Positions 12,996-48,456 are shown, counted from the first letter of the stretch. The stretch is 64,000 nt of DNA from Candidatus Woesearchaeota archaeon (GCA_002685855.1 NYYS01000018.1:12859-76858), one strand, 5' to 3'. Translations and numbers: made by a program. Notes: generated from the letters alone by a model not told the origin.

Positions 12996-14014
12996 CCATC
13001 AAGATGCTCTTCAGAAAACGCAACAGCATCCCTCACCTCCTCAGACTCTGAATCCTGAACACCCTCCCCCTTTAAATGTAAGGAAGAAAAATCAATCTTC
13101 CTCATTGTAAAATCTTTTTTCATCAACAACACCACACGCGACTCCTCCTGCTCATCCACAATCTTCCAACCACTCACCTCAGCAATTCTCTCAGAAAACT
13201 CCTTCACCTCATAATGATACGGCATCATCTCCATCTTCAACCGCTGACGCGAACTTCCTATAAACATATACGCCTTCACCTCAACAAAATGCGGATCCCC
13301 CCGATCCAGAATCTCTGCATACCTCTCCGGCTCCACATCATTCAACCCCTTAATCAACGTAATCCGCACAGCCGTCCGCATCTCCTTCTTACGATCCTTC
13401 AACACATCCATACTCTCCATCAACCGACTCCACCCATCCTTCCGCATCGGCTGATCAATCTTCTTATACAGCTCCTCATTCGGAGCATCCAACGACAGAT
13501 AAAACTGCGTAGGCGCCTCCAACTTCCTCAACACAACAGGTAGCTGCCCATTCGAAACAACAAACGTAGAAAAACCATTCTTGTGATACTCCCTAATCAA
13601 CGCAGACAACTTCGGATAATACAACGGCTCCCCATTCAACGAAATAGCCACATGCTTTGGAGTTTTAGACTCCTTGTATAACGCCATATCCACCTTCTCA
13701 TTCCCAGGAAACCCATTCAACAACACATTCTGCGCCCCCACACTCTCAGGAACAATCGCTTTAGGATCATCCGGCACTCCAAAACTACTATTATTACGAG
13801 AACGCCAACAAAAAATACAATCATGATCACAAAAATTCGTAGCAGGCGTCATCTGAACACACTGATGACTCTTAATCCCATAAAACCGCTGCTTATAACA
13901 CGTTCCACAACCCGTCAAAGCCTTCTTCGTCCACCCACAGATCTTTACAGAAGTATGCTCCCCTGCAAACCGATACCCCTGGTTCTCAAGCTGTTTCTTG
14001 TATTCTGGATCCAT
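12992..14014 (-). CDS. taw1: 4-demethylwyosine synthase Taw1/TYW1 (radical SAM, wyosine biosynthesis)
   Basis: 'CYKQRFYGIKSHQCVQMTP...NFCDHDCIFCWRS' matches the TYW1 auxiliary-cluster region plus the CxxxCxxC-W radical SAM motif. Archaea/eukaryote-specific enzyme. Confidence 0.75.
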   Translation of the reverse strand: MDPEYKKQLENQGYRFAGEHTSVKICGWTKKALTGCGTCYKQRFYGIKSHQCVQMTPATNFCDHDCIFCWRSRNNSSFGVPDDPKAIVPESVGAQNVLLNGFPGNEKVDMALYKESKTPKHVAISLNGEPLYYPKLSALIREYHKNGFSTFVVSNGQLPVVLRKLEAPTQFYLSLDAPNEELYKKIDQPMRKDGWSRLMESMDVLKDRKKEMRTAVRITLIKGLNDVEPERYAEILDRGDPHFVEVKAYMFIGSSRQRLKMEMMPYHYEVKEFSERIAEVSGWKIVDEQEESRVVLLMKKDFTMRKIDFSSLHLKGEGVQDSESEEVRDAVAFSEEHLDG

Positions 14015-14061
14015 AAACAGAGAAATCAGAAGTTCTTTTTAAAGCTACTGGGGGGGAACGG

Positions 14062-14271
14062 TTAATTCAATAAGGGATTCTGATGATAGATTCTTGTTAC
14101 ACGATGAATCCTCATTAACTCATCATAGGTGTGCTTTCGAATTATATAATCTGTAAAACCTTTCAAAAGGAAATCGACTGCAGCTTTTTCCTTAGATCGA
14201 GGCTTCTCAGCTTTTTCAGCCAAATAACTCTCTGGATCTGCCATAATGTCAACAACATCACGAACATCCAT
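14062..14271 (-). CDS. small hypothetical protein (69 aa) in the AT-rich island
   Basis: ORF only. A 48-codon Cys-rich ORF (MKKEQTKKICCSEMAAQLKHQCDLHKNIFDCPDNIVC) lies just upstream at ~14322-14465. Confidence 0.25.
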   Translation of the reverse strand: MDVRDVVDIMADPESYLAEKAEKPRSKEKAAVDFLLKGFTDYIIRKHTYDELMRIHRVTRIYHQNPLLN

Positions 14272-14468
14272 AGATCTGTCAACAAACTCACGTTCCGGCC
14301 GCTCCTCAAAATGATCTCCTAATCCTGCCTGATCCCAAACATATCTCCTTTAAAACAAACAATGTTGTCAGGACAATCAAATATGTTTTTATGGAGATCA
14401 CACTGATGTTTAAGCTGAGCAGCCATCTCTGAACAGCAAATCTTTTTTGTTTGTTCTTTTTTCATTTT

Positions 14469-14876
14469 TTATCCAATAACCCAAACTACATCTCTAATAA
14501 AGTAGAACCATTTCTTACCTTCAAAAAGATCTTCTTTAAACAAAGGTATATGTTTGTACTCTTCGTATTCTAGTTCTTCTTCAGTGCATCCCATTAAATC
14601 GTAATAGTTATTAATAGATAAATTAACACCCTTAAGAGCGTCTTTAAATTTAAAAGGTTCGACGGTTTTCGCCTCCATAAATGTCTTATCGTAAAAGTCT
14701 TTAAAATCGTCGATAGCCACAACCACCTGCGAATCTTTGAAATGCTTATTAAACACCCAGATTTTTAGATAATACTCTTCTCTGAATGAATCAAGTTTCT
14801 TCTTCCAGCTCAAATAAATATCTACAAGCTTCTTTTTCCAGCTGATTTCCATCCAATATGCGGATTTATAGGGCAT
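14469..14876 (-). CDS. hypothetical protein (135 aa); candidate immunity/accessory gene downstream of the RHS-RNase toxin
   Basis: AT-rich, Lys/Glu-rich, same strand and tightly spaced after the toxin and the 343-aa ORF. No detectable barstar-like motif. Confidence 0.4.
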   Translation of the reverse strand: MPYKSAYWMEISWKKKLVDIYLSWKKKLDSFREEYYLKIWVFNKHFKDSQVVVAIDDFKDFYDKTFMEAKTVEPFKFKDALKGVNLSINNYYDLMGCTEEELEYEEYKHIPLFKEDLFEGKKWFYFIRDVVWVIG

Positions 14877-14953
14877 TTTTCTTCAGGAAGAATGTGGCCG
14901 TAGTCAATATGAACTCGAGCACTTGCCTGTACACCATGACCTCTAGATTCTTT

Positions 14954-15985
14954 TCACTTCTTTAAGTTCTCCTTGTGTTCAAGATATTTTAAAAGTTCAA
15001 CCTCTTTTTTTGTTATTTTTTCAATATTTTTTTGTACAATCTTGCTTTCGGCAAATTCTTTTAATGTTGTTTTTAAAAAAACTTTATCGCGAGCTCTGAC
15101 AGAAAATCCTTTTTTTAGTAAGAGTATTGAACAAAGTTTGTTTTTTAAATTGTTCGCTTCTTTAAAAACGTGTTTTGATTTTAAATCCTTGTTTCCATTC
15201 ATGTTTGAGTCTTTTTTCAATAGGCTTATGGATCCTCCTTTAATTGATTTTAACTCCGAATAAATATTGATTAATTCATCGTCGGGAACTTTGAAATATT
15301 TCCGCGGATGTTCCTTCATTTTTTTTGTTAAATATCCTTCTTTTGCATTTTTCCTGAAATAAAAACTCAAATATGTTTCTCCATCAACGTAGTGTTTTTT
15401 TACCAATTGTAGGAGTTGTAATAGCTTTTTGGTTTTTTTTCTTTTATAAGGAATTAAAATTTCATTATGGATCGTGTGTTGCGAATATAATTTTTGTCGA
15501 AGATGTCTTTTCAAAGTTTCATTAATAAATAATTTGTTTTGTGTATTAATTATTTTTGTGAGATCTTTTTTCAGAGGAGTACAGTCATCTAAAAAAACCA
15601 AGATAAAAGCACATTTTCCATCAATCTTGCTGCACAAAACTCCTTTTACTAGGCAATTAATAAATGCGAGATAATTTTCTTTCCCTAATACATCATAAAA
15701 TTTTTTTAGAGAATTAATAAAAATTAATCTTTCTTGCTTTTTCATCCATGTTGGATATGCAATCATATCAAAAAAAACATACCATCTGTAACTAAAGTCT
15801 TTTCTTTTATATTTTGTTTTTCTAACATATAGATCTATAAGATCCTTTAAAGATTTTTCTTTATCACTTTCAAACACAATTTTTTTGTAACCTTTAAACA
15901 GTACTGAAATTTTTTTAAAATCATCTCTATTATTAATGAAATAAAATGTGCTATTTAATTTATAATCCTCAAGTAGCTTTTCCAT
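14954..15985 (-). CDS. Lys-rich hypothetical protein (343 aa) immediately downstream of the toxin gene
   Basis: Starts 19 nt after the toxin stop. Strongly AT-rich codon usage unlike native genes. No known motif. Confidence 0.5.
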   Translation of the reverse strand: MEKLLEDYKLNSTFYFINNRDDFKKISVLFKGYKKIVFESDKEKSLKDLIDLYVRKTKYKRKDFSYRWYVFFDMIAYPTWMKKQERLIFINSLKKFYDVLGKENYLAFINCLVKGVLCSKIDGKCAFILVFLDDCTPLKKDLTKIINTQNKLFINETLKRHLRQKLYSQHTIHNEILIPYKRKKTKKLLQLLQLVKKHYVDGETYLSFYFRKNAKEGYLTKKMKEHPRKYFKVPDDELINIYSELKSIKGGSISLLKKDSNMNGNKDLKSKHVFKEANNLKNKLCSILLLKKGFSVRARDKVFLKTTLKEFAESKIVQKNIEKITKKEVELLKYLEHKENLKK

Positions 15986-16003
15986 TTTTATCCCTCTTTT
16001 TTA

Positions 16004-17215
16004 TCATTCAAGTATTATTCTTTTAACTGTTTTTTCATTATGATGATTTTTGTTCCAATACCAATCACCTTCTTTTGACAAATAGAATCTTTGTCCTGTA
16101 TCCTTTCCCGAGTTGTCGAATACCCTAAACTCTGAGTAAAAATCAGGATCTGAATTATAAGGTAAAGGACCTCCCTTTTTTGATGTATCAGTAAAGGTAT
16201 TATCAAAGCGTTTACTACCTATTAATTCTTTTCCTTCTTTGTAGTTTTCTTCTAAAATATTAAGTTGGTCACTAACACGTGGTGGAAGATTTGATTGTTT
16301 AATGGGATTTATCTTATTTCCGATCATCCCGAACTGGCTCCCATCATCAGCAATTCTGGCACTACTTGCTTCATCCGTACGCTTAAAAAAATCACCAGCT
16401 GCTTCTAAGGCCTCATCGCTATATTCTATTGCTTCATCAGCCAATGCGGCGGCCTCATCAGCATACCTCGCCTTATTCGCAATAGAACCAGGAAGAATGG
16501 CTGTAAGCAGCCAAAACGCGTTCTCAGCAGAAGGCTCTTTAGCAAAAGAATATACATCCCAAGCATCAGAAGCAACCTCCAACAAACCCAAAGCCACAGC
16601 AACAACCGCCCAATTCCCTGTCGGATCAACATACTTCACAGGATTATTTCTTACATAGCTGTACCTGTTCAGCTGTTGTGGGTCGTAGGGATCTGGTAGC
16701 AGGGGATCTGGGGATACGAAGATTCCTGTTTTTGGGTTGTAGTGGCGTGCTTCATAGTACATTAATCCTGAACTGTCTTGTTCTTTTCCTGTGAAGCCGT
16801 AGCGTTCTTCTCCTCCTGTTAATACTGATCCGAAGGGAAGATGTTCTGTTTCTTCTACAACTTCTCCTTCTGCATCCGTAACCACCTGTGGGCTTCCCAG
16901 ATGATCTGTATGAATGTAAAACATTCCGGAATCGTTCTTTTTTGCGACCAAACCTGTTGAATCCCGATAATAGATCATTTCCTCTACTGTTCCATCAGGA
17001 AGAACAACCTTAACATAATCATCAACATAATAGGTAGTAGTATTTGTTCCATCCTTATGGAACTCAATCTTTCTCACCCTCGTACCTGTATGATCATACG
17101 TGTTCTTAACAGTTAATCTATCCCCATCCTCCTCATCATAGCTAAAAGCAGAGGTAAAACTCGTTATGATGAGAAATACTAAGAACAGCGATATGATTCT
17201 ATTTGGCTTCATCAA
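16004..17215 (-). CDS. secreted mini-RHS polymorphic toxin: signal peptide + YD/RHS repeat-associated core + C-terminal barnase-like (N1/T1/Sa family) ribonuclease domain
   Basis: Signal peptide 'MMKPNRIISLFLVFLIITSFTSA'. RHS core 'FYIHTDHLGSPQVVTD...PFGS...YGFTGKEQD...YYEARHYNPKTGIFVSPDP...DPTGNW'. C-terminus 'RFDNTF...GGPLP...YSEFRVFDNSGKDTGQRFYLSKEGDWYWNKNHH' aligns with barnase catalytic Glu/Arg/His. Confidence 0.75.
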   Translation of the reverse strand: MMKPNRIISLFLVFLIITSFTSAFSYDEEDGDRLTVKNTYDHTGTRVRKIEFHKDGTNTTTYYVDDYVKVVLPDGTVEEMIYYRDSTGLVAKKNDSGMFYIHTDHLGSPQVVTDAEGEVVEETEHLPFGSVLTGGEERYGFTGKEQDSSGLMYYEARHYNPKTGIFVSPDPLLPDPYDPQQLNRYSYVRNNPVKYVDPTGNWAVVAVALGLLEVASDAWDVYSFAKEPSAENAFWLLTAILPGSIANKARYADEAAALADEAIEYSDEALEAAGDFFKRTDEASSARIADDGSQFGMIGNKINPIKQSNLPPRVSDQLNILEENYKEGKELIGSKRFDNTFTDTSKKGGPLPYNSDPDFYSEFRVFDNSGKDTGQRFYLSKEGDWYWNKNHHNEKTVKRIILE

Positions 17216-17244
17216 GATCCCCCCTTCACAAAAGGATGTTTCTT

Positions 17245-17259
17245 GAAATATTTAAATAT
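17245..17259. promoter_or_regulatory. 15-bp palindromic site GAAATATTTAAATAT, copy 1 of 2 in the divergent toxin promoter region
   Basis: Identical 15-mer recurs at 17351-17365, ~106 bp away. The core ATATTTAAATAT is self-complementary. Confidence 0.45.
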
Positions 17260-17350
17260 TCTTCCTGGAATTCCGGATATTTTCCGAAGAGAAGGTACAC
17301 ATATTCCTTGTTTACTTTATAAACGGTTTAATGAATCTTCTTTAAGAAGG

Positions 17351-17365
17351 GAAATATTTAAATAT
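17351..17365. promoter_or_regulatory. 15-bp palindromic site GAAATATTTAAATAT, copy 2
   Basis: Exact repeat of the 17245-17259 site, upstream of the 17410 (+) Cys-rich gene. Confidence 0.45.
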
Positions 17366-17409
17366 CTCTGTTCTCAAAATAGCTTATGTTACGTAGGGGT
17401 TAGCTAGTA

Positions 17410-17793
17410 GTGATACTGCTAGGGTTAGTCTCTGGTGTGGGGGCTATGACGTTCAGTGAAGCCTGTGATAGTGGTGTGGAAAGGGCTTGTAGCTATCTTG
17501 AAGTATGTGGTTTTTCTGATTGCGGACCTGATGGATGTATTCCAAAGGAGAAAGAAGCTGTACAAATAGAACCAGTAACAAAACTCCCAAAGAAGATCTT
17601 TGACTATTCTGCTCCAATAAGATGCACCCAGTTCAATGATTGGGTAACTACAGATGTCTCACATACCTTATGTGACAAATACCCCACAAGCTGTGTCCGC
17701 AAAAGCGATCCCAACTACCACTTCGACCAATACTGTACTAAAGAAGGACTTATTCAGCCCATACACCTTCAAAAAGGAGGAATAAATGAATAA
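17410..17793 (+). CDS. small Cys-rich secreted protein
   Basis: N-terminal hydrophobic segment and 10 Cys in 127 aa. Balanced composition (island). Confidence 0.4.
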   Translation: MILLGLVSGVGAMTFSEACDSGVERACSYLEVCGFSDCGPDGCIPKEKEAVQIEPVTKLPKKIFDYSAPIRCTQFNDWVTTDVSHTLCDKYPTSCVRKSDPNYHFDQYCTKEGLIQPIHLQKGGINE

Positions 17794-18436
17794 GCCAACC
17801 CTCATCCTACATTTCCTCTTTTTCACACTTCTCCTACTACCCATAACCTCAGCAGAAACCTGCGTACAAATCATGGGCGTAGAACACTGCTGCGGAGTTG
17901 ACGATGGCGTATGTCCCATGGACTACGAAGATTCATACGGAGTACGAGTCGGATGCGGAGGAGACCCCGACCCGGATTGTTGTGGAGGACAGAATACGAG
18001 ATGGAGAGAATGCGAGAGAGATATTGAGAAGCCAGATGAAAGTGGAATATTCACCTATAATACATGTGTAACATCAACCTATGATTCAGCATGCTGTGAT
18101 CAGCCAACAGATTGCGTCTATGATGGAAACTGTTACGACACAAGTTCAGCTGCAATAGAACTCTATCCCAATGATGGACGAGAGCAATGTTCAGAAGGAC
18201 AATGGTGTCCGGAAGGGTTTAAATATGATCCTGTGCGTTTATTTTGTAAAAAAGCTCAACAAACATGTCATCCTAATCCTCCAGGTGCTTGTAGATATTT
18301 GCCTTTTACAAAGGAGTGGTATGAAACTCCCTCTTGTTTCTTGCCTCAATCGCCGGTCCATGAACAAACATGCTGTTTCGATTTCAGTCTTGGAGGTCAG
18401 GATTTTTACAATTTTAAAAGAGTGAGAATCGAGTAA
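17786..18436 (+). CDS. Cys-rich secreted protein (216 aa)
   Basis: Signal peptide 'LILHFLFFTLLLLPITSA'. More than 25 Cys including CC/CxxC clusters. Overlaps upstream ORF by 8 nt. Confidence 0.5.
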   Translation: MNKPTLILHFLFFTLLLLPITSAETCVQIMGVEHCCGVDDGVCPMDYEDSYGVRVGCGGDPDPDCCGGQNTRWRECERDIEKPDESGIFTYNTCVTSTYDSACCDQPTDCVYDGNCYDTSSAAIELYPNDGREQCSEGQWCPEGFKYDPVRLFCKKAQQTCHPNPPGACRYLPFTKEWYETPSCFLPQSPVHEQTCCFDFSLGGQDFYNFKRVRIE

Positions 18437-18440
18437 AAAT

Positions 18441-19775
18441 TCACTTTAGAATTACTGCCTTTCTTGTTGAAGATTCTTTAATACCCTGAGTTGTCTGCTC
18501 AAACCGAATAAAGTAGACTCCGCTCGAGAGAGTAGATGCATTCCAGCGATAACTATGTTGCCCTGGAGCAAGTTCTCCTTCGAAGATGGAGGTTACTTGT
18601 TGACCTGTAAGGGCATACGCAGAAATACTTCCCTGTCCACCTCTTGAAAGGATTTGGATCTGAGTTGAGGGGTTAAAAGGATTAGGAAAGATATTCTCAA
18701 TACGTGAATGAACTAATGGTGCTGATGGAGGGATTGGATCAGCAATACCCACCTCTGGTTTTTCTGGAAGGCCATAGGTAATTAAAAGAAATTCCCCGTT
18801 TGGAGTTCTGTCCTGGAGCATTCGCGCAAAGACGTCTGCATTCCATAGGCCAGGAAATTGTTTGTTCGGATCCCTATCTGAATAACGTGCAATTTGCGCA
18901 TTTATGTATGGACCAACTTCGTGTCTCTCATCGGAGTTAGTTCTATGTCCTCTCATTTCATGCTCAAATATGAGCTGAGATATGAGTGAATCAGAGGGAT
19001 TTTCTGTATTCCAAAAAACTTCGCATAAAACAGGTTCAATCACGTTCGATGTAGGATGCATTCTCACAATAGGATTTGCTTCATTCGTATAATAAGGGAG
19101 AATGTTCCAGCCGCCAACAGTAACAGAGTCAGGAACAATTTCAATTTCTCGAGGTGCAATTTCTCGAGCATAATCACCAATACAAGCTTCTAATCCTTTA
19201 ATATGGTTCGGATTTGAGATTGAGGGATCTATCCAAACCTGGTAGGCAGTGAGTCCTGCGTCTTCGATAAAACTATTTTTTGGCCAAGGATTATCTCCAT
19301 AATTCATATTTCCATAATGAACTATTCTTTCAGGTTCCCATTGATTGATTTGCCATTCAAGGAATTGATTATACACAACAACCTCCCTTGGCCGTACAGG
19401 CACGATGGTGCTATCCCCGCGGTCAATCCAGCTAGTATCCGGATATTGTACTAAGAGAACAGGTTGCGGTTTGAATATAATATTATTGTCAAATTGTTTG
19501 TAGAAGTTGTCATATCCTTCTGTTTCTACCCATACTGCTCCTCCCTGGTGTTCAGGAAAGCTTACTTCACCATTAGAATCTGTGAATTTGATATCATCGT
19601 TGTAATCAACAGGAACACCAACAACAAATTCACCTGTTGCCACATCCCGTAACACGAAATCTGTAGCTTGGGCATTATGAGGCTGTGCTAACCCTATTCC
19701 CCTGACTGTACCTGCGATTAAAAGACTCTTTGGAACCTTCCGGGACGCCTTCCTAACCATATCACCAAGACTCAT
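18441..19775 (-). CDS. secreted protein with a C-terminal T9SS/Por-type sorting-domain-like beta-sandwich
   Basis: C-terminal ~80 aa 'FPNPFNPSTQIQILS...ISAYALTGQQVTSIF...GQHSYRWNAS...SGVYFIRFEQ' matches the Por C-terminal sorting-domain pattern. N-terminal catalytic-looking region is unassigned. Confidence 0.5.
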   Translation of the reverse strand: MSLGDMVRKASRKVPKSLLIAGTVRGIGLAQPHNAQATDFVLRDVATGEFVVGVPVDYNDDIKFTDSNGEVSFPEHQGGAVWVETEGYDNFYKQFDNNIIFKPQPVLLVQYPDTSWIDRGDSTIVPVRPREVVVYNQFLEWQINQWEPERIVHYGNMNYGDNPWPKNSFIEDAGLTAYQVWIDPSISNPNHIKGLEACIGDYAREIAPREIEIVPDSVTVGGWNILPYYTNEANPIVRMHPTSNVIEPVLCEVFWNTENPSDSLISQLIFEHEMRGHRTNSDERHEVGPYINAQIARYSDRDPNKQFPGLWNADVFARMLQDRTPNGEFLLITYGLPEKPEVGIADPIPPSAPLVHSRIENIFPNPFNPSTQIQILSRGGQGSISAYALTGQQVTSIFEGELAPGQHSYRWNASTLSSGVYFIRFEQTTQGIKESSTRKAVILK

Positions 19776-20005
19776 ACTCTTTGGAATAGGCTTAAATTAT
19801 AAAAACATTTGTGAGAACAGGATTAATAGCTATATAGTCATTAAATCATTCATCTAAAATGACCTCATAAAAATTTTGTTCTTTATATGCAGGAAAACCT
19901 GTTTTTCTCGCTTGAATAACAGTGTCATCCTTGTTTTCTATAAACTGACTAATACTTGCCTGAAACAGAGAGATCGGATGCATCGATGTAATTTCTGCCT
20001 CTTTT

Positions 20006-23105: not shown

Positions 23106-24169
23106 TTTAAAAACCTCTTCGCATCTTCCAACTGCTCATCAAACTGAGGAATAGACTCAGCAAACACATGCGCAAAGATCTGATCAATAGGCGGCTTCCC
23201 AATCTCCTCCCACTTTTTAACTTCCTGATCAATCAACACAGCATGCTCACTCTCCAACTTCTTCTCCCAAGACTCACTCCACAACTTCCTCCCCTTCAAA
23301 TACTTCTGAAACCGCAACAACGGATCACGAACAGCCCACACCTTCAAATCCTTCGGATCACGATACTTCTTTGCATCATCCGAAGTCGTATGATCACACA
23401 TCCGATACGTAAACGCCTCAATCAACGTAGGACCCTTCCCAGCACGCGCCTTCTTCAACGCACTTCCAATAACAGACACCAACCCAAGAATATCATTCCC
23501 ATCCACCTGAACAGAATCAACCCCGTAAGCAATCCCCTTCTGCGCTATCGTCTCCGCCATCGTCTGCCTTGCACGCGCAGTACTAATAGCAAACTGATTA
23601 TTCTGACAAAAAAACACACTATTCGTAGAATACACACCCGCAAAGTTCAACCCACTATGAAAATCACCCCGACTCGTAGCCCCATCACCAAACGTAACAA
23701 TAGCCGCATTCTTCTTCCCCTGCAACTTCAACGCCCAACCCGCACCTGTACAATGCGGCGTCTGACTCCCAACAGGAATCGCAATCGGAAACACCCGAAC
23801 ATCACTATGCAAATTCATCCCCCGCTCATCCCCTGCCCAATACAACAACAACTTAGAAATAGGAACACCCAACGCAATCAACGCACCCGTCTCACGATAC
23901 CCGGGAAAAAACCAATCCCCCTTCTTCAAACAATGCGTCAACGCCACCTCACCCGCCTCCTGACCCGTATACTGCACATACGTACCCGTCTTCCCCGTCC
24001 TCTGCAATGCCAACCCCTTCCGATCATACTGCCGAATCAGATGCATCTTCTTATACAACGCCTTCAACTCAGAAACAGACAACTTCGGATCCAGCTTCGA
24101 ATCTACCTTTCCCTTCTCATCCAACACCTGCACATACTCAACCTTGAACTGCTTAATCGTCTTCTTCAT
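23102..24169 (-). CDS. pyruvate/2-oxoacid dehydrogenase E1 alpha subunit (TPP-binding)
   Basis: TPP motif 'FGDGATSRGDF...NNQFAIS'. Start placed at 'MKKTIKQF' (Met32 of track ORF), 1 nt after the lipA stop. Confidence 0.8.
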   Translation of the reverse strand: MKKTIKQFKVEYVQVLDEKGKVDSKLDPKLSVSELKALYKKMHLIRQYDRKGLALQRTGKTGTYVQYTGQEAGEVALTHCLKKGDWFFPGYRETGALIALGVPISKLLLYWAGDERGMNLHSDVRVFPIAIPVGSQTPHCTGAGWALKLQGKKNAAIVTFGDGATSRGDFHSGLNFAGVYSTNSVFFCQNNQFAISTARARQTMAETIAQKGIAYGVDSVQVDGNDILGLVSVIGSALKKARAGKGPTLIEAFTYRMCDHTTSDDAKKYRDPKDLKVWAVRDPLLRFQKYLKGRKLWSESWEKKLESEHAVLIDQEVKKWEEIGKPPIDQIFAHVFAESIPQFDEQLEDAKRFLK

Positions 24170-24170
24170 C

Positions 24171-25067
24171 CTACACCCTCTTTTTCGAATCCCGCGACAC
24201 ACAGTGCATATACGCCTCATACGCCCGATAACTACTCCGCACAAACGGCCCGGAAACAACAACCTTCAATCCCGCTTCCCTACCCAAAACTTCATACCTT
24301 TTAAATTGTTCGGGTCGCACATACTCCACCACATCCAGCAAACCCTTTCGAGGCCTCAAATACTGCCCCACAGAAACAATAGACACACCCACAGAAACAA
24401 GATCCCGAAACACCTCCACCACCTCCTTCTCAGATTCACCCAACCCAACCATCAACCCACTCTTCACCACCACCCCCGGAAAAACCCGAGCAACCTCCCG
24501 CAGCACAGACAAACTCTGCTCATACCCCGCCCGCCTATCCCGAACCTTTGACTGTAACCGTTTAACCGTCTCCAAATTATGACCAAACACATCCACCAAC
24601 CCTCCAACCCGCCGAACCAATCCTAAATCTCCACGAAAATCCTGCGCCAACACCTCCACAACCAATTCAGGATTCAACTCCTTCACCAAAGAAACACAAT
24701 TAGCAAGATGCCCTGCACCCTGATCAACAAGATCATCCCTACAAACAGTAGTAATCACCGCATACTTTAACCCTAACTTCTGCAAAGAGATAGCAAGACG
24801 CCGAGGCTCCTCAACATCCAACACCTCCCCCTTCCCACACGAACGAACATTACAAAACCTACACCCCCGCGTACAAGAATCCCCCATCACCATAAACGTC
24901 AACGTACGACTACTCCAACACTCAGACATATTCGGACAATGCGACTCCTGACAAACAGTCGCAACCCCAGACTCATCCACCAATCCCTTTAACTCAGCAA
25001 ACGGCTCAACACAAGGAGGCCGAATCCGCAACCACAAAGGCTTCTCCCCAGAAACAACAACCTCCAC
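24171..25067 (-). CDS. lipA: lipoyl synthase LipA (radical SAM)
   Basis: 'CQESHCPNMSECW' auxiliary cluster and 'CTRGCRFC' radical SAM motif. Confidence 0.85.
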   Translation of the reverse strand: MEVVVSGEKPLWLRIRPPCVEPFAELKGLVDESGVATVCQESHCPNMSECWSSRTLTFMVMGDSCTRGCRFCNVRSCGKGEVLDVEEPRRLAISLQKLGLKYAVITTVCRDDLVDQGAGHLANCVSLVKELNPELVVEVLAQDFRGDLGLVRRVGGLVDVFGHNLETVKRLQSKVRDRRAGYEQSLSVLREVARVFPGVVVKSGLMVGLGESEKEVVEVFRDLVSVGVSIVSVGQYLRPRKGLLDVVEYVRPEQFKRYEVLGREAGLKVVVSGPFVRSSYRAYEAYMHCVSRDSKKRV

Positions 25068-25426: not shown

Positions 25427-26184
25427 ATGAGAGGACGCCCCAAAAAACAACTATCTCAACAAACAATTCTCCAAGAACTCCGGGCCTGCGACAACACCCT
25501 TCAAGAACTCCACGTAACCCCAAAACCCCAACAAACCCCCCTCTACCGCGCATACGAAAACCTCGGCACCGAAATCATCCGACACGGCATCGACGCCCTC
25601 GCCCACATCATCTTCTTTGGAGAAACCCTCCACGCAGCAAAAAACGGCACCCCCCTCGAAACAGTCCTCGAAAGATACGAACTCACACCCTCCGCCCCAC
25701 TCGTTATTCCCCTCTCAACCATACAAAAAAGAGGAATCTACATCCCCCAAACCGCCTACACAGACCTCTTCCTCCCCCGCGCTACCTCAGCCACTCCTCA
25801 CAACCCGAACGCTGGATACCCCTCTTCAACAGCGAAGACATAGGAAGAATCCTCTTCACCCCCCAATTCAACGGCCCCCACCCAAACACCGCATTCCAGC
25901 AGGCCCTCCTCGCCCTCTCAACCACGTGGACCGCCAACGACCTCCACCCCCCAGCAAACCGCAACTACGGACTCAACTTTGCCCACAAACTCTGGAACAT
26001 CTGCACCGAACACATCCTCCACCCCTCAAAAACCATCCACCGCGAACAGATCCTCCACTCAAAAAACAACAAAACACCTCCCCAGTTCAGACTCCACGCC
26101 CACGAAGCATACAACAAAACAACACAATTCCTCCGCTACTATTCAACCATCATAGACCCCCTCCTCCCACACAACCCAAAATAA
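25427..26184 (+). pseudogene. hypothetical protein gene with a probable -1 frameshift near 25790-25815
   Basis: Frame-2 ORF (25427-25843) is followed by ~125 stop-free, Met-free codons in the adjacent frame ending TAA 26182-26184, with a protein-like translation. The track's alternative ORF 25617-26252 is Pro/His low-complexity junk. Confidence 0.35.
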
Positions 26185-26230
26185 CACCCCGCAACCAAAC
26201 TTTTAAAAACCCCTCCTTCCACACCCCTCC

Positions 26231-26710
26231 ATGTTCATCACCGACTTCATAACAAAGGTAGAATCCTCAGAATCCTACAAAGAATTCATAAAAAATCACC
26301 CCGACTACTACCTCGTACACCTCTTCTGCATGCAGCCAGACGAAAACTGGCAAGCCGGCTACTACTCAGAAAAAGAAGACAAGATCGTCATCTTCTCCGG
26401 CACCCCCGTCATGAACTCAACAGAAGAAGACTCCTTCAAAAAACAAGGAATCATCCACCCCCTTCCCATCAACGAAATAACAATCGACGCAGACAAAGCA
26501 ATCCAGCTCGCAGAACAGGCAAAAAACACCAAACACTCCGCAGAAACCATAAACAAAAAAATCATCATCCTCCAAATCATCGAACAACCCGTATGGAACA
26601 TTACATTAATCTCAGACAGCTTCTCCATGATCAACATCCGCATCCATGCAAAAACAGGAGAAACACTCAGAATAAAAGCAGACTCCATCCTCTCCCTCGG
26701 AAAAAAATAA
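26231..26710 (+). CDS. hypothetical protein (159 aa)
   Basis: Clean ORF with native composition. No motif assigned. Confidence 0.45.
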   Translation: MFITDFITKVESSESYKEFIKNHPDYYLVHLFCMQPDENWQAGYYSEKEDKIVIFSGTPVMNSTEEDSFKKQGIIHPLPINEITIDADKAIQLAEQAKNTKHSAETINKKIIILQIIEQPVWNITLISDSFSMINIRIHAKTGETLRIKADSILSLGKK

Positions 26711-27126: not shown

Positions 27127-27795
27127 CTAGACGCCATTCCTCAACAGCCCAGGAATCCTTGCAAGAGACTCAACCTCATGCGCAAAATCAGCATGCCTCA
27201 CCACATACTCCCGAAGCATCTCGGGAGTATTCATCGCATACTCATGCGTAACAGCAAAAAACTCCAAATTCTCCGCCCCCATCTCCCTCGCAGCCAACAC
27301 CTCCTCCCCATCACACACCATATCCCCAAAATACCCCACCCGTCTTCCACCAAACTCAACAGCTAACTCATACAACTGCTGCGCCTTCCCATTTACCGGA
27401 CTCCGAACATTCCCCAACAAATGAACAAACCCATCCCGCTCAAACTTCATGCGAACCCGTTCAGGAGTATCATTCGTCACAAAATACAACCCCTCACCAG
27501 CAAGCTCAGCCTCCAACACCACCTCCCGCGCACCCGGAATCAAAGAAGACGGCCCCAGCTTCTCATACTCCACACCAAACTCCTCAACAACCTCCTCCAC
27601 CTCCTCCTCAGGATGCCCCATATCCCTAGCCAGTTTTCTCCAATCCATCGACTGTAGATTCCTCTGATAAAACCCTAAACTCACAGGAGCATGCCCCCGC
27701 TTCACAAGAAGATGATTCTCAAGATTAAACGCAGGCAGAAGCGAATCATACAACGTCCCATCCAAATCCAGCAATGGAATAAGCATCGAAGTCAT
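27127..27795 (-). CDS. HAD-superfamily hydrolase
   Basis: N-terminal 'LLDLDGTLYDS' (DxDGT) motif I. Overlaps the upstream thymidylate-kinase-like gene by 4 nt. Confidence 0.65.
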   Translation of the reverse strand: MTSMLIPLLDLDGTLYDSLLPAFNLENHLLVKRGHAPVSLGFYQRNLQSMDWRKLARDMGHPEEEVEEVVEEFGVEYEKLGPSSLIPGAREVVLEAELAGEGLYFVTNDTPERVRMKFERDGFVHLLGNVRSPVNGKAQQLYELAVEFGGRRVGYFGDMVCDGEEVLAAREMGAENLEFFAVTHEYAMNTPEMLREYVVRHADFAHEVESLARIPGLLRNGV

Positions 27796-28739
27796 TTATG
27801 CGGAAACTCTATCACACTTTTCAATTTTCTGATTCTTTCCCTCTCAAACGTATCCCAAATCTGCTCAGCACGCCTCGAAACATCCACATAAGAAAGACCA
27901 AACATCTCTCCATACTCCTTCTTCAACAAACCCAATGTCTCACGAATCGTAACCACCTCGGTCTGACTCGCATCCACATACCCTACCTTGGATCCATACC
28001 CTTCCAGTAACTCCCTCAAAGCATTCGACTGATAGTGCGGATTCAGCTTCATCTGAAACTCTAACCGTTCAAAACAACTATCATCCTTCTTCTTCCTCCC
28101 CTTAAGGCGCTCCATCAATCCAGAAGGATCCTGAATAACAGGAATAACCACAAGATTCGGCCCATTCTCCAAACAATAGTTATTTCCATGGATACTAACC
28201 ACATCCTCTCGTGTCAAACTTTCACGCCTTTCCTCAGCTTGCACTGGCTGATACACGAGACTGGAAACAACATTCCTACTCTGCACAATAATCTTCCCCT
28301 CATCAAGCAAAGGAAACAACACCTTCCGATGCAGTATCTCACGATCAAGCCCATACGCCGCTGCAGTCTCAGTTGCCGTATAATCAGAACCTGTCTTAAT
28401 AAACTCATCCCGAATCATCTTTCCAATCCCGCAATACGTCGGCTCAGACGTAAGCACAACATCATACAAAGACATATCAACATAGTAACGAGGATCTTTA
28501 TCACTTGTAAATATCGGATGCGTCCGCGAATTTTTCCAGAACTCATTCAAATCCAGCACCCGCAATCCCGTAATCTTGCACTGCTCAGCAACCGCATCCT
28601 GAATAACGCCCTTCCCACTCCCATCCAATCCATCAATAACAACAAACAATCCCTTTCTTCCATGAACCATTTTCTCATCCTCACCCGTTCCAAATAAGGA
28701 AACCACTTTCATTCTTCTCTCATCAACCCGTCTCATCAT
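27792..28739 (-). CDS. thymidylate kinase family protein (long form, ~100-aa C-terminal extension)
   Basis: P-loop 'VVIDGLDGSGKGV' in Tmk-like context. ATGA overlap with the ThyX-like stop supports a start at 28739; an alternative start is Met24 (28670). Confidence 0.55.
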   Translation of the reverse strand: MMRRVDERRMKVVSLFGTGEDEKMVHGRKGLFVVIDGLDGSGKGVIQDAVAEQCKITGLRVLDLNEFWKNSRTHPIFTSDKDPRYYVDMSLYDVVLTSEPTYCGIGKMIRDEFIKTGSDYTATETAAAYGLDREILHRKVLFPLLDEGKIIVQSRNVVSSLVYQPVQAEERRESLTREDVVSIHGNNYCLENGPNLVVIPVIQDPSGLMERLKGRKKKDDSCFERLEFQMKLNPHYQSNALRELLEGYGSKVGYVDASQTEVVTIRETLGLLKKEYGEMFGLSYVDVSRRAEQIWDTFERERIRKLKSVIEFPHK

Positions 28740-30610
28740 CCACCCTTCAACTTCCGCATCGAACGAATCTCTCCAACAGCCCTACCATAATCCAACTCAG
28801 TAGAACTATCAACAAACTTCATCGTCTTCCCAAGAACAGGAAGAACCTTTTCAGCACCCTTCGCAATCATCTGACACACCTGCTTATAGTTCAGATGCGC
28901 ACCCGGCTGCGTCCTCAACTCACAGATATGATGAAGCTCCCGTGCATTTACTGTAACAGGAAACCTTCCCAACGTACCCAACGGCAGCCCATACGAAGCA
29001 ACATGTGGATTAATCCTCTCAGCCGCCTCACCATACAGATCAGAAACATGCTGATAGATCTCATCCAACGGCTTGCTAAACCCTGCCATCCGAAACACCT
29101 CAGGAACAAAGAATCCCATATCCGGACTAAAATAACGGCTATCATACAACGTAAGAATCCGATGACGCCGCACATCACGAATCTCCCCAATCGTCAACAC
29201 CGCATTAATATCAAAACTAAACCGTTCAAACGCCCTCCCCGGCCTATGCCGCCGATTCGTCCGAACACCCTGATCTATTCCAGCATAGGCAAGAACAAGA
29301 CCTTCCATCTCCTCATGGTTCATCCCCCTCACCACCCTGTATGCACCCTGCTCACTCACCACAGGATCACGCTCTTTCACAATAGCCGCAACCAGATCCT
29401 CCAACTCATCGTTGCTCCAAATATCGATCGAAAAAGGAACACCTTCCTGAGAAACAGAGAGAACATCCTTCCCATACCCCAGACCACGATACCCCTCAAC
29501 AGTATATCCCTTCTCAGATGAAGACCAAAGCGGCTTATCCTTCCTCTCCTGATCATCCTCTCTCTCCACTTCAACACTCCTTGTCGTAGCCAGATACTTC
29601 AAAAAAGCCTGTGTTCTTCTACTCCTCGGATCAAGATCCTTCACCAACGGGCCCAACGAAGAAGATGAATCCCTCCGCAAAAGTTCAGCAATAACAACAC
29701 TCTCAGTAGTAGGAATACTATACCCATCCAACACAAGATCCCGAACATTCTGAGCATTCATCAACAAGGTCAACTGCGTCTTTGTTGCCAACGGCAGAAT
29801 ACTCCGCGCACGATCAAGCTGCATACTATTCAACGTCTTCTTATATGCCTGACTCAACTCCTCCTGACTTGCACCTTCACTCCCCGCTATATCCAACGCT
29901 TCAGCAACACCCGCAGAGAACTCATCAAACCTCAACACCTCCATCTCCATCGTCTTACGAACAATCTTCCCTTCATCTGTCCGAGTACTATTCAACCTTC
30001 GATACGAATCAAACAGCTGATCCATCACCTGGACAAACCGTTTTTCAAGTCCTGCCTTCTTAAACAACGGATCCACAAAATAGGGATACCTCCCCTCAAC
30101 CTTCTTATGAAACTTCCGATACCGTGTTGACTTCTCAATCCCTGCCAACAGACGATGATGCAACAGATGCATCGCCTGATACGCAGTCACATCCTCAAAA
30201 TTCACATTAATTGGAACAACCTGCGCAATAGAATCATCACCAAACTCACTAAACACCCGCTGATAAAAACCCGTGCCAAACGACTGAACAAGATCAGGAA
30301 CATTCAATTCATCAAACGCAGCCCTGCTCTCCTCATCTGCCAACACATCCTCCACAAGAGTAGTACGAACATCCTTTGGATTCCTACTCTGCTTCGACCC
30401 CAACGCACCCGAAAGAATCCCTAAAATTTTCGTAGAAAACACCGGCAGATCAAGATTCGAAAAAAACTTTTCCAACCTTGCCCCATCCTCTGTATCAAAC
30501 TCTCGCTGACGATACCCTAGTATATCACATAACTCCTCACGACTCATATCAACAAGTCCATTCGGTTTCTTCAACACATCAAGAACCATTTCCATCTTTA
30601 TTCCCCTCAC
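28736..30610 (-). CDS. thyX: FAD-dependent thymidylate synthase ThyX-family protein, unusually long (624 aa)
   Basis: C-terminal half carries the ThyX serine motif (RHRILTLYDS, 6 residues before the Ser) and 'NARELHHICELRTQPGAH'. N-terminal ~370 aa is unassigned, possibly a degenerate tandem ThyX duplication. Confidence 0.6.
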   Translation of the reverse strand: MRGIKMEMVLDVLKKPNGLVDMSREELCDILGYRQREFDTEDGARLEKFFSNLDLPVFSTKILGILSGALGSKQSRNPKDVRTTLVEDVLADEESRAAFDELNVPDLVQSFGTGFYQRVFSEFGDDSIAQVVPINVNFEDVTAYQAMHLLHHRLLAGIEKSTRYRKFHKKVEGRYPYFVDPLFKKAGLEKRFVQVMDQLFDSYRRLNSTRTDEGKIVRKTMEMEVLRFDEFSAGVAEALDIAGSEGASQEELSQAYKKTLNSMQLDRARSILPLATKTQLTLLMNAQNVRDLVLDGYSIPTTESVVIAELLRRDSSSSLGPLVKDLDPRSRRTQAFLKYLATTRSVEVEREDDQERKDKPLWSSSEKGYTVEGYRGLGYGKDVLSVSQEGVPFSIDIWSNDELEDLVAAIVKERDPVVSEQGAYRVVRGMNHEEMEGLVLAYAGIDQGVRTNRRHRPGRAFERFSFDINAVLTIGEIRDVRRHRILTLYDSRYFSPDMGFFVPEVFRMAGFSKPLDEIYQHVSDLYGEAAERINPHVASYGLPLGTLGRFPVTVNARELHHICELRTQPGAHLNYKQVCQMIAKGAEKVLPVLGKTMKFVDSSTELDYGRAVGEIRSMRKLKGG

Positions 30611-30834
30611 TATGCCTTTTATTAAAAACCCAACCCGCCCCTATAAAAAAATTCCTGTATACCAACATAGAGAACCCCACCATCACAAAAAAAAACAACC
30701 ATCCCAACCTATACGCTCAAGACCCTAAAAAAAATCATCACTGTCCTTAGACGAAAAAAATAGAGGAGAAATCATATAAAAAGCAACAGCAAAAACAAAG
30801 AAATGTTTTTATACCAAACCCAACTCATCATCAA

Positions 30835-31869
30835 ATGATTGTGGGTGTAACCGGGTTCATGACCGCAGGCAAAGACACCTTTGCCAACTACCTTGTAGAA
30901 AAAAAAAGATTCATTCACATCTCACTCAGCGACATTCTCAGACAAGATCTAAAAAAAACAAAGAAAAAAATAACACGCCAAGCACTCATGGAACTCGGCA
31001 ACCTTCTCAGACAAAACCTCGGCGGAGGCATCCTTGCACAACGCTCCCTCCAAAAAATACAACCCGATGAAAACATCGTCATCAGCTCCATCGGCACCGT
31101 AGCAGAAGTAAAAGAACTCCAAAAAAGAAAAGACTTCATCCTCGTCTTCATCGACGCACCCCAGACCACAAGATTCCAACGCATCACCGTAAGAAAAAGA
31201 GAAGAAGACCCCTCAACACTCGAAGAATTCAAACAAAAAGAAAAAACAGAAAGCAAAGGAGGCGGCAAAGCCTACAGAGAATTCGACAACGTCAGAAAAC
31301 TCGCAAAAGTCATCATCAAAAACAACACAACACCAGAAGCATTCCACAAAAAGATCGACACCTTCATCACAGACTGGCAGCCAAAACTCCGACACAAACG
31401 ACCGAGTTGGGACCAATACTTTCTCGACATCGTAACATCTGTAGCACAACGCGCAACATGCGACCGAGGGAAAACAGCATCAGTAATCGTAAAAGACAAA
31501 CGTATACTCACAACAGGCTACGTCGGCAGCCCCCAAGGACTCCCCCACTGCGACGAAGTCGGCCACCTCTACAAAAAAGTAAAACACGAAGACGGACACA
31601 TCTCACAACATTGTGTACGCACACTCCACGGAGAACAAAACGCAATACTCCAGGCAGCAAAATACGGCATCCCCATCCAGGGCTCAACCATCTACTGCAA
31701 ACTCGCACCCTGCCCGGTCTGCGCAATGATGATCATCAACGCAGGAATCAAACGCGTAGTCTCAAAAATAGGCTACCACGGAGCCATCGACACACCAAAA
31801 ATATTCAAAAAAGCAGGCGTCAAATTCCAAATCCTCAACAAAAAGATCGAAGAGTATGCTAATCAATAA
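30835..31869 (+). CDS. fusion protein: N-terminal P-loop (d)NMP-kinase-like domain + C-terminal dCMP/cytidine deaminase domain
   Basis: P-loop 'GVTGFMTAGKDT'. Deaminase zinc motifs 'HGEQNAILQAAKYG' and 'LAPCPVCAMMII'. TATA-like 'tttttatacc' ~25 nt upstream. Divergent from the thyX operon. Confidence 0.65.
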   Translation: MIVGVTGFMTAGKDTFANYLVEKKRFIHISLSDILRQDLKKTKKKITRQALMELGNLLRQNLGGGILAQRSLQKIQPDENIVISSIGTVAEVKELQKRKDFILVFIDAPQTTRFQRITVRKREEDPSTLEEFKQKEKTESKGGGKAYREFDNVRKLAKVIIKNNTTPEAFHKKIDTFITDWQPKLRHKRPSWDQYFLDIVTSVAQRATCDRGKTASVIVKDKRILTTGYVGSPQGLPHCDEVGHLYKKVKHEDGHISQHCVRTLHGEQNAILQAAKYGIPIQGSTIYCKLAPCPVCAMMIINAGIKRVVSKIGYHGAIDTPKIFKKAGVKFQILNKKIEEYANQ

Positions 31870-32021: not shown

Positions 32022-32309
32022 GTGTTCGTAGTGTGGATAGAAACCCTCATAGATAGCATTGACAGAACCAAGGTCGAAATTACCTTTTCACCACACCTCT
32101 TTGATAGAAAAGAATGCTGGAATCTTGATTTAGATAAGATTGAGGAAACAGCAAGAACAGGAAAAATAGTCTTTGAAAAATGCGAAGAACCAAACAAAAT
32201 ATGCTTTAAGAGATACTATGGAAAAGAACATACAACCTATGTGCTAATAACAAGATACTATAAAGATTTTATTGAGGTGAAAACAGTATGGCCAAAGAAA
32301 GGAAGATGA
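32022..32309 (+). CDS. putative type II toxin (DUF4258-like small protein)
   Basis: 95 aa. Overlaps by 22 nt a downstream zinc-ribbon/AbrB-type gene in TA-like arrangement. Balanced composition. Confidence 0.4.
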   Translation: MFVVWIETLIDSIDRTKVEITFSPHLFDRKECWNLDLDKIEETARTGKIVFEKCEEPNKICFKRYYGKEHTTYVLITRYYKDFIEVKTVWPKKGR

Positions 32310-32605
32310 CCTGTGAATGTGGACATGTTCTCGTAAAAAAGAATGCAACATTTGATGAATTTGAAACAGAGGCAATGGTTTGCCCTGGCTGTCAATTCAC
32401 AACACTTACCAAAGAACAAGCCAAGAACTATGTTCGACTCAAACAGCTCCATCAAATTATTGATTCAAAGAGAAAGATCATAAAAATTGGAAACTCCATG
32501 GGACTTACCCTCCCTGACAGACTGAAGGATTTAGGCGTGAAGGTTGGAAGAAAAATAAAGACAGAAGCATTAACCCCAAACTCATTCAAAGTTGAACTTG
32601 AATAG
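32288..32605 (+). CDS. putative antitoxin: YgiT-type zinc ribbon + AbrB/MazE/SpoVT swapped-hairpin DNA-binding domain
   Basis: 'CECGHV...CPGCQF' zinc ribbon followed by 'KIIKIGNSMGLTLPDRLKDLGVKVGRKI' AbrB-like motif. Confidence 0.5.
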   Translation: MAKERKMTCECGHVLVKKNATFDEFETEAMVCPGCQFTTLTKEQAKNYVRLKQLHQIIDSKRKIIKIGNSMGLTLPDRLKDLGVKVGRKIKTEALTPNSFKVELE

Positions 32606-47793: not shown

Positions 47794-47830
47794 GCCACTT
47801 TTTCTCTTTTTTTTCTCTTTTTTTATCAAC

Positions 47831-47944: not shown

Positions 47945-48456
47945 GGGGAAAACCAGAGCCAAAGCAAGATCTTTCTAGCCTGAGCGATCTCGAACTCTTC
48001 CAGGAACTCGGAAAAAGACTCGCAGAAAAACACCAAACAGATCCTTCCACTCTTCTCATCCCCACACCCACTCCCCAAAACACCATCCCTCTCCCCATCT
48101 TTACAGGATCCCTTTCTCCCCTAGAAGCCGTTGTCAAATACCTCCACGAAAACCACAAACTCTCATTCACCGCAATCGGAATCAAACTCAACCGCTCGGT
48201 AAAAACAATCTGGCAAGCCTACCAAACAGCAAAAAAGAAGATGCCAGAACCCTTCACACCCTTCAAAGGAGAAACACTCCCCCTCTCAGAACTCTCAAAC
48301 AGAACCTTCTCACTCTACGAAAACCTCGTTCTTTACCTTTCAAAAAAACACCGCCCGAAAGAGATCGCCCTCCTCATCAACAGACCCCAACGAAACATTA
48401 ATACAATCCTTAGCAGAGCACGAAAAAAAGATCAACAAACAAAAACAGAATCATGA
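47932..48456 (+). CDS. small HTH protein with sigma-70 region-4-like helix-turn-helix segments; candidate regulator of the downstream giant gene
   Basis: 'LSFTAIGIKLNRSVKTIWQAYQTAKKKM' and 'EIALLINRPQRNINTILSRARKK' resemble region-4/LuxR-type HTH. Overlaps the start of the 2750-aa ORF by 4 nt. Confidence 0.35.
   Translation: MQKNRGKPEPKQDLSSLSDLELFQELGKRLAEKHQTDPSTLLIPTPTPQNTIPLPIFTGSLSPLEAVVKYLHENHKLSFTAIGIKLNRSVKTIWQAYQTAKKKMPEPFTPFKGETLPLSELSNRTFSLYENLVLYLSKKHRPKEIALLINRPQRNINTILSRARKKDQQTKTES

Follow-up and report, generated by a model that had tools for sequence, protein, structure and literature searches.

Is a cluster of thymidylate-metabolism genes with atypical architectures, found in a Candidatus Woesearchaeota archaeon, a phage-type module or part of the housekeeping equipment of its host? 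We have analyzed this question for the 64,000-nucleotide stretch GCA_002685855.1 NYYS01000018.1:12859-76858 (the window; all positions are counted from its first letter), in which the cluster occupies positions 27127 to 31869. It comprises a flavin-dependent thymidylate synthase (ThyX), a thymidylate kinase-like (Tmk-like) protein, a HAD hydrolase and, divergently transcribed, a single polypeptide that joins a kinase-like domain to a dCMP deaminase (the fusion). An earlier reading, made from the sequence alone, had preferred a phage-type nucleotide-pool or base-modification module to a housekeeping layout. The cluster is instead very probably a chromosomal, long-resident gene set for the dTTP branch of pyrimidine-deoxynucleotide metabolism in a marine Candidatus Woesearchaeota (DPANN) archaeon. 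Its odd architectures exist as described but are widespread among related ultra-small microbes, being features of the lineage and not oddities of the locus.

The four genes had been correctly identified and placed by the sequence-only reading: the open reading frames (ORFs), three on the minus strand and one divergent on the plus strand, were confirmed, and searches of Pfam, NCBIfam and the PDB agree with the assignments. The whole fusion ORF extends over 30835-31869 (+) and encodes 344 aa. The features of the cluster are as follows.

27127..27795, minus strand: HAD hydrolase, a HAD-IA type phosphatase of 222 aa; last gene of the thyX-tmk-HAD operon
27792..28739, minus strand: Tmk-like P-loop kinase, divergent thymidylate-kinase-like, 315 aa (292 aa if the start is M24, at 28670)
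28736..30610, minus strand: ThyX, pseudo-tandem flavin-dependent thymidylate synthase, 624 aa from a GTG (619 aa from the ATG at 30595)
29576..30493, minus strand: N-half of ThyX, a degenerate ThyX domain, about residues 40-345 (from hhalign and the residue table over 101 sequences)
29411..29575, minus strand: segment (linker or insert) that joins the two halves of ThyX, about residues 346-400 (from alignment gaps in 530-550-aa relatives and predicted strands)
28739..29410, minus strand: C-half of ThyX, residues 401-624 (from hhalign against T. maritima ThyX, phmmer against the PDB and the residue table)
30611..30834, between the divergent genes: A/C-rich intergenic region of 224 bp, read directly from the sequence
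30835..31389, plus strand: N-terminal domain of the fusion with a nucleoside monophosphate (NMP) kinase fold, residues 1-185, of UPF0200/AdkA-like type
31390..31869, plus strand: C-terminal zinc dCMP-deaminase domain of the fusion, residues 186-344

The ThyX protein matches the Pfam Thy1 family (PF02511) in two stretches, with an E value of 5.5e-32 and 111.5 bits against a gathering score of 24.8, and it has the ThyX fold; its score against the NCBIfam equivalog TIGR02170 (53.7 bits) lies under the cut-off of 87.9. The motif of single-domain ThyX, RHR-x7-8-S with S88, R90 and Y91, is split over the two halves and is complete solely at the level of the whole protein. RHR (482-484) is confined to the C-half and E-x-S-x-R-Y (159-164) to the N-half, and both are invariant in 101 sequences. 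ThyX motifs had been thought to occupy only the C-terminal ~250 aa; this holds for the RHR triplet, but the N-half is itself a ThyX domain, with E-x-S-x-R-Y. The suspicion that the protein is pseudo-tandem was borne out by hhalign, which finds the N-half homologous to the C-half (Prob 86.8%, E 4e-6) and aligns each half with T. maritima ThyX (N-half, E 1.4e-4; C-half, Prob 95%, E 2e-8), and by the complementary residues described below. The PDB matches found by phmmer span residues 455-585. An origin of the N-half from a domain unrelated to ThyX was rejected on the hhalign homology and the residue table.

The residues mapped on the two halves were chosen because they have been targeted in T. 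maritima ThyX, for which the PDB holds the variants S88A, R90A, Y91F, H53A/D, R174K and E144R; we take them to act in the binding of dUMP and FAD. The N-half keeps R153, E159, S161, R163, Y164, D266 and R269 (in that order, T. maritima R80, E86, S88, R90, Y91, E144 and R147) and has lost the equivalents of R74, R78, H79 and R165. The C-half keeps E462, R478, R482-H483-R484, N555, R557, L565 and R566 (T. maritima E58, R74, R78-H79-R80, N163, R165, L173 and R174) and has lost those of E86, S88, R90, Y91 and R147. The equivalent of H53 is a proline in the C-half, and the corresponding position of the N-half is not alignable. This complementary retention is invariant or nearly so in 101 of 101 sequences, and the 624-aa ThyX reads as a fused pseudo-dimer in which each half has retained what the other lost.

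Nor is this arrangement peculiar to the window. Our searches yielded 124 ThyX matches, of which those 530-645 aa long can be aligned over more than 90% of the length, and the collinear layout is found in more than 100 protein clusters from archaea, Actinobacteria, Chloroflexi and bacteria of the candidate phyla radiation (CPR). More than 100 of the collinear clusters are of 530-550-aa proteins with 25-30% identity, named FAD-dependent thymidylate synthase, from Acidimicrobiales, Roseiflexus, Solirubrobacterales, Euzebyales and CPR bacteria. The archaeal subfamily of 604-645 aa is small and shares 41-46% identity with the window ThyX. Specific to these archaeal proteins of more than 600 aa is a linker predicted to form a beta-meander, with strands at 362-398 and lower confidence in the predicted structure (pLDDT 57-81); the 530-550-aa relatives have gaps there. 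A compact tandem ThyX of 433 aa is found in a CPR-like bacterium. Chlamydial ThyX, presumably about 529 aa long, may belong with the long forms. A literature search on tandem or duplicated ThyX returned nothing relevant. The sequence-only reading had allowed that the cluster would be simply the housekeeping set if the N-half were a second degenerate ThyX domain common in relatives and canonical single-copy pathway genes were absent; the former is what the homology search, hhalign and the residue table found, and as to the latter, no canonical thyA or tmk was found elsewhere in the 64-kb window.

The fusion on the opposite strand, described earlier as a divergently transcribed kinase-dCMP-deaminase polypeptide, is likewise upheld, with both domains matched beyond the 224-bp spacer. 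It matches dCMP_cyt_deam_1 (PF00383) at E 1.8e-22, above the cut-off, as well as AAA_17, AAA_18 and ADK. The zinc ligands of the deaminase are present as H265-G-E267 (HAE in the family; general pattern H-[AG]-E) and P292-C293-x-x-C296 (PCxxC). The P-loop of the kinase domain follows the pattern G-x-T-G-xxx-[SA]-G-K-D; other conserved residues are R36 and two arginines of the LID, R113 and R120. NCBI lists the same protein, at 100% identity, as 'hypothetical protein CMO92_01505 [Candidatus Woesearchaeota archaeon]'. Among its 707 matches, the best 120 are all 333-374 aa long, contain both domains and share 46-69% identity over the full length. The fusion is a feature of the lineage: within Woesearchaeota and Nanoarchaeota it retains 48-69% identity.

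The Tmk-like kinase matches the Pfam family Thymidylate_kin (PF02223) with an E value of 1.2e-15 and 58.2 bits against a gathering score of 27. Its P-loop reads DGLDGSGKGV and SRN (within QSRNV) stands in place of DR(Y/H/F), departing from both GxxGxGK[ST] and DR[YHF]. The same is seen in the wider family, which has an adenylate-kinase-like P-loop, DGLDGSGKG[TV], and either ERG or, in the subfamily of the window protein, SR[SN] in place of DR(Y/H/F). Its 177 homologues, mostly of ~240 aa and from Woesearchaeota and Nanoarchaeota, are 38-45% identical and carry names that vary by source (dTMP kinase, thymidylate kinase, deoxynucleoside kinase, hypothetical protein). The protein had been credited with an extension of ~100 aa; the extra length is real, but alignment with relatives shows that it is composite, in three separate parts and not one extension. 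The first 23 residues hinge on which start codon is used (M24 lines up with the starts of the relatives); ~25-30 aa are inserted internally, behind the P-loop helix, as in the closest subfamily; and a C-terminal tail of ~40 aa is unique.

The HAD protein scores below the Pfam gathering thresholds for both PF00702 (Hydrolase; 22.8 bits versus 26.4) and PF13419 (HAD_2; 19.6 versus 23.8). All four HAD motifs (DxDx[TV], S/T, K and DxxxD) are present and conserved in its family, as D10-L-D12-G-T, T107, K137 and D158...D162, and a profile search of the PDB with the family retrieved phosphoglycolate-phosphatase-like HAD-IA proteins (best E 3.5e-11). By its motifs this is a catalytically intact phosphatase of HAD-IA type. 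In a set of 1.84 billion proteins no more than 38 representative clusters match it at E<1e-10, which makes for a small family, and a search of genome contigs with the protein found no relative. Of three homologue contexts examined, one has an overlapping dNK/Tmk-like kinase gene next to it and the other two have no nucleotide-metabolism neighbour.

The three minus-strand genes are tightly packed, and the translational coupling of ThyX, Tmk and HAD that had been proposed is supported by both junctions (thyX/tmk and tmk/HAD), each a 4-nt ATGA overlap. The ATG at 30595 is the ThyX start in public gene calls, and the same operon is present on an independent TARA Oceans scaffold. The 224-bp spacer contains TATA-like A/T boxes facing both genes: TTTTATA lies ~25 nt 5' of the fusion ATG, and TTTTTTTATAGG and TTTTTAATA are TATA-like boxes on the opposite strand, upstream of thyX. 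From their sequence and position these boxes may be promoters. A sigma-70 promoter scan gave no sites, as is expected of a bacterial consensus that is not applicable to an archaeon. An Rfam scan of 26.7-32.7 kb, spacer included, returned zero matches.

The surroundings of the cluster are those of a housekeeping region. Neighbours in the window are PDH E1α, E1β and E2, lipoyl synthase (LipA), thioredoxin, TFS, an α/β hydrolase, LOG, NMD3, a helicase, a PRPP-synthase-like protein and NUDIX; none of them is a phage, integrase or DNA-modification gene. The closest archaeal ThyX relatives (41-46% identity) head thyX-tmk(-tmk)-dcd operons flanked by DNA ligase, ArgRS, CTP synthase, RNR, FtsZ and deoxyhypusine synthase. 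The order seen in the window, tmk <- thyX <- -> fusion ... TFS, recurs in the Woesearchaeote GCA_041305085.1 (L016:4147-7032), whose fusion is 55% identical. A relative whose fusion is 69% identical (L018:3-1959) keeps the order fusion-TFS-hydrolase, and its upstream gene, cut by the contig end, starts with an MtrA-like domain. A further Woesearchaeote has the fusion and the Tmk-like gene at separate places, each in housekeeping surroundings. The slot beside the fusion has thus held different enzymes in different Woesearchaeota, while the linkage of dUMP-making and dTMP-making genes persisted. For the thymidylate synthase slot this looks like non-orthologous displacement in situ, of which the variation at this slot offers a local example.

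A further link comes from the CPR-like bacterium GCA_964640635.1 (L009:2400-6759), in which six adjacent, separate genes form a compact operon: a dCMP deaminase, two AAA_18 kinases, a dUTPase, the 433-aa tandem ThyX and a GKG-type Tmk-like kinase. One of the AAA_18 kinases is 29% identical over its full length to the N-domain of the fusion, and the Tmk-like kinase, which follows the tandem ThyX, belongs to the closest subfamily of the window protein (45% identity). The operon, in which counterparts of the two fusion domains are separate and adjacent genes, provides support of the Rosetta-stone type for a functional link. This operon adjoins RF-1, PrmC, L31, S2 and EF-Ts.

The base composition of the window bears on how long the cluster has been in place. 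The plus strand has a GC skew of -0.32 overall and of -0.4 to -0.6 in most genes. At third codon positions, again on the plus strand, GC skew reaches -0.77 to -0.97 and AT skew +0.5 to +0.9 whatever the direction of the gene, and G and T are nearly absent at synonymous sites. The four cluster genes, with a third-position GC skew of -0.77 to -0.93, are like the core genes in this respect. Two stretches, at ~14000-20000 and ~46200-47800, have low GC content (0.23-0.39 at third positions) and lack the strand skew of the genome, with third-position skews of ~0 and -0.42, respectively; they are probably recently acquired islands. Because the skew of the cluster is that of the host and the islands are unlike it, we conclude that the cluster has long been resident in its present orientation and was not recently acquired.

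The asymmetry itself seems more unusual than the thymidylate cluster. No skew of this kind was present in the 69%-identical relative (L018) or in the other Woesearchaeota loci compared, and a literature search on GC skew in Woesearchaeota found nothing relevant. The pattern resembles what deamination might leave on a strand long exposed as single-stranded DNA, by analogy with the mitochondrial H-strand. Amino-acid composition also differs with the coding strand. Owing to the skew, real genes are faced on the other strand by long ORFs without stop codons whose products would be rich in P, L, T, Q and H, as at 23168-24304 (+), 25617-26252 (+) and 28895-29521 (+), including one of 378 aa opposite PDH E1α, and public gene calls on the same DNA include several likely spurious minus-strand genes. 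The ORFs of the two low-GC islands include secreted- or membrane-looking proteins.

Elsewhere in the window, positions 48453-56705 (+) hold a single ORF of 2,750 aa whose N-terminal part includes a hydrophobic segment and which probably encodes a giant surface protein; a secreted-looking ORF of 425 aa comes next. Between the fusion and TFS, at 32022-32605 (+), lies an overlapping pair of genes for a DUF4258 protein (95 aa) and a 105-aa CxxC...CxxC zinc-ribbon protein, which looks like a toxin-antitoxin pair. The pair is missing at this position in the 69%-identical relative, and GCA_041305085.1 has a HEPN/nucleotidyltransferase pair there.

Homology, folds, conserved motifs, synteny and the resident composition are what the analysis has shown; from these we infer the following scheme, in all that it says on substrates, on how many active sites there are and on what the kinase domain and the HAD protein do. 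The zinc deaminase domain of the fusion would convert dCMP to dUMP, the pseudo-tandem ThyX would methylate dUMP to dTMP with FAD, NAD(P)H and a methylene-folate-type donor, and the translationally coupled Tmk-like kinase would phosphorylate dTMP to dTDP. Within ThyX, the N-half may give the dUMP-binding loop (E-x-S-x-R-Y plus the R147 equivalent) and the C-half the R-H-R and the equivalents of R74, R165 and R174, which by analogy to T. maritima ThyX would serve FAD and substrate binding. The active sites of classical ThyX are assembled from several subunits, so that a dimer of the window protein would mimic the classical homotetramer, with about half as many complete active sites. For the NMP-kinase-fold module of the fusion, binding or phosphorylation of a pyrimidine (d)NMP is most likely, and a single polypeptide would then contain the branch point at dCMP (dCDP versus dUMP); the alternative is a regulatory role through the binding of nucleotides. 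The HAD protein may trim the dUMP/dTMP pool; that it is a nucleotide monophosphatase is a reasonable guess, nothing more.

Several observations weigh against this dTTP-branch scheme or parts of it. The score of the Tmk-like kinase against TIGR00041 (75.4 bits) is just under the cut-off of 83.25, and the protein lacks both the P-loop Ser/Thr and the Asp of DR(Y/H/F), so its specificity for dTMP is not assured. In the kinase domain of the fusion the Walker-A Ser/Thr is Asp family-wide, and the PADLOC dCTPase model (PDLC02373) aligns across both domains (E 1.7e-30), so that dCTP may be a substrate. In the syntenic GCA_041305085.1 the cluster has a canonical ThyX of 298 aa, a canonical Tmk and no HAD gene; the types of these enzymes differ from those of the window, and an ancient replacement must therefore have occurred. 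As to further thyA, thyX or tmk genes, tblastn with E. coli ThyA, canonical ThyX and Tmks, dUTPase and DCD-type dCTP deaminase found no second copy in 64 kb, a check confined to the window.

Some of these points lend themselves to a different account, in which the cluster is mainly a salvage unit that would process scavenged deoxynucleotides for a host that has no de novo synthesis, with the Tmk-like protein as a deoxynucleoside or broad dNMP kinase, the kinase domain of the fusion as a dCMP/CMP kinase and the HAD protein as a 5'-nucleotidase. Many members of the Tmk-like family match Pfam dNK and bear the NCBI name 'deoxynucleoside kinase'; the GKG P-loop and the ERG or SRS/SRN in place of DRY fit as well, as do a weak match to the archaeal (d)CMP kinase TIGR02173 (E 5e-5) and the one HAD homologue that is followed by an overlapping dNK/Tmk-like kinase gene. 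However, the Tmk-like gene occupies the tmk slot coupled to thyX both here and in the CPR-like bacterium, the Tmk-type motifs EPT...G..IR and S..VYQ are retained, and the presence of ThyX means that dTMP is made, not only salvaged. We regard this account as unlikely; it overlaps the dTTP-branch explanation and does not exclude it.

Considerably less probable is that the fusion is an anti-phage dCTP deaminase (DCD/AvcD type) which depletes dCTP and dCMP on infection and lies beside thyX by chance. The domain order is the same, AvcD and DCD deaminate both dCTP and dCMP (PMC10511110), the PADLOC alignment covers residues 1-309 of the fusion, and NCBIfam NF041025, 'anti-phage dCTP deaminase', matches with E 1.3e-24; the DUF4258 and zinc-ribbon gene pair also lies just downstream. 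The NF041025 score is, however, 86.8 bits against a cut-off of 400, and the PADLOC alignment takes in only positions 155-484 of the 630 in the profile, about 150 N-terminal and 150 C-terminal positions of the defence family being missing. Whereas defence genes are patchy, the fusion keeps a constant length and ~50-69% identity across Woesearchaeota and Nanoarchaeota, and it is found in housekeeping contexts with repeated linkage to thyX-tmk or TFS, not in defence islands, mobile contexts or a sporadic distribution. The spacer upstream of the fusion gave neither Rfam nor other RNA matches, though AvcI itself probably has no Rfam entry. Judged by these curated models, the fusion resembles AvcD/DCD without being a member, and a defence gene was rejected as the primary identification on the NF041025 and PADLOC scores, the lineage conservation and the synteny in GCA_041305085.1.

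That the cluster is a phage-derived or mobile nucleotide-pool or base-modification module, in which a ThyX homologue, kinase, HAD protein and deaminase make a non-canonical pyrimidine nucleotide, is scarcely credible. In its favour, dCMP deaminases, dNMP kinases, nucleotide phosphatases and homologues of thymidylate synthase are often found in phages, there are 2,683 phage tblastn matches to the deaminase domain, and the HAD gene and this Tmk subtype are not in the syntenic cluster of GCA_041305085.1. Against it, at least 80% of the fusion is covered by 0 of 50,697 phage and 0 of 72,556 plasmid records; for the long ThyX a single phage match was found, weak and to a jumbo phage; no PADLOC or NCBIfam model that passes its threshold points to defence or modification; and lineage-wide architectures, synteny, neighbours and host skew all speak for residence. 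Phage origin was rejected on the phage-record searches and the resident strand skew, and the cluster should not rank as a phage or base-modification module, a false lead that is hereby removed. What the sequence-only reading observed is thus confirmed and its interpretation partly supported.

The enzymes of the cluster may be compared with known systems. The Tmk-like kinase shares with thymidylate kinase (PF02223, TIGR00041) the motifs EP...G..IR and S..(A/V)YQ, a basic LID segment and a gene position right after thyX; it differs in GKG for GK(S/T), SRN for DR(Y/H/F), the ~25-30-aa insert after helix 1 and the 40-aa tail. The window ThyX has the same invariant residues in both halves as the long ThyX of 530-550 aa, with which it is collinear over more than 90% of its length, and the additional length of the archaeal 600-645-aa subfamily lies in an extended N terminus, ~30 aa inserted into the N-half and the ~40-50-aa beta-meander of the linker. 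Compared with classical ThyX (PF02511; T. maritima TM0449, M. tuberculosis ThyX) it is fused, and neither half is complete. All solved ThyX structures are of single-domain proteins of ~190-245 aa, as against the 624 aa of the window protein; the tandem family, of which there is no solved structure, is a natural test of which subunit supplies which active-site residues.

Like the anti-phage dCTP deaminases (DCD/AvcD), the fusion has a P-loop kinase-like domain followed by a zinc dCMP-deaminase-like domain, and both domains are homologous; unlike them, it has 344 aa (the profiles have 437 and 630 positions) and a Walker-A GKD, and it is lineage-wide and linked to thyX-tmk. We would tentatively suggest, as a possibility short of an even chance, that the fusion is a housekeeping relative of AvcD/DCD and the sole source of dUMP in these archaea. 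Its kinase fold might then either widen the deaminase from dCMP to dCTP/dCDP or make the protein a bifunctional dCMP kinase/deaminase that splits scavenged dCMP between the dCTP and dTTP pools. In either case, together with the composite-site ThyX, this would amount to a dTTP pathway of an uncharacterised kind, typical of the ultra-small cells of DPANN and CPR. As an abundant and uncharacterised archaeal enzyme, the fusion may show the origin of the anti-phage dCTP deaminase family. Its deaminase resembles the monofunctional dCMP deaminases (S. mutans ComEB-type 2hvv, T4 Cd 1vq2 and cyanophage S-TIM5 4p9c), with 31-34% identity in the structural alignment and intact H-x-E and PCxxC zinc motifs, and differs from them in the covalent N-terminal domain of NMP-kinase fold. 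The UPF0200/AdkA-like archaeal P-loop proteins to which that domain is akin (S. solfataricus SSO1041, PDB 3lw7/3h0k; PRK08356) stand alone, whereas here the domain is fused to a deaminase.

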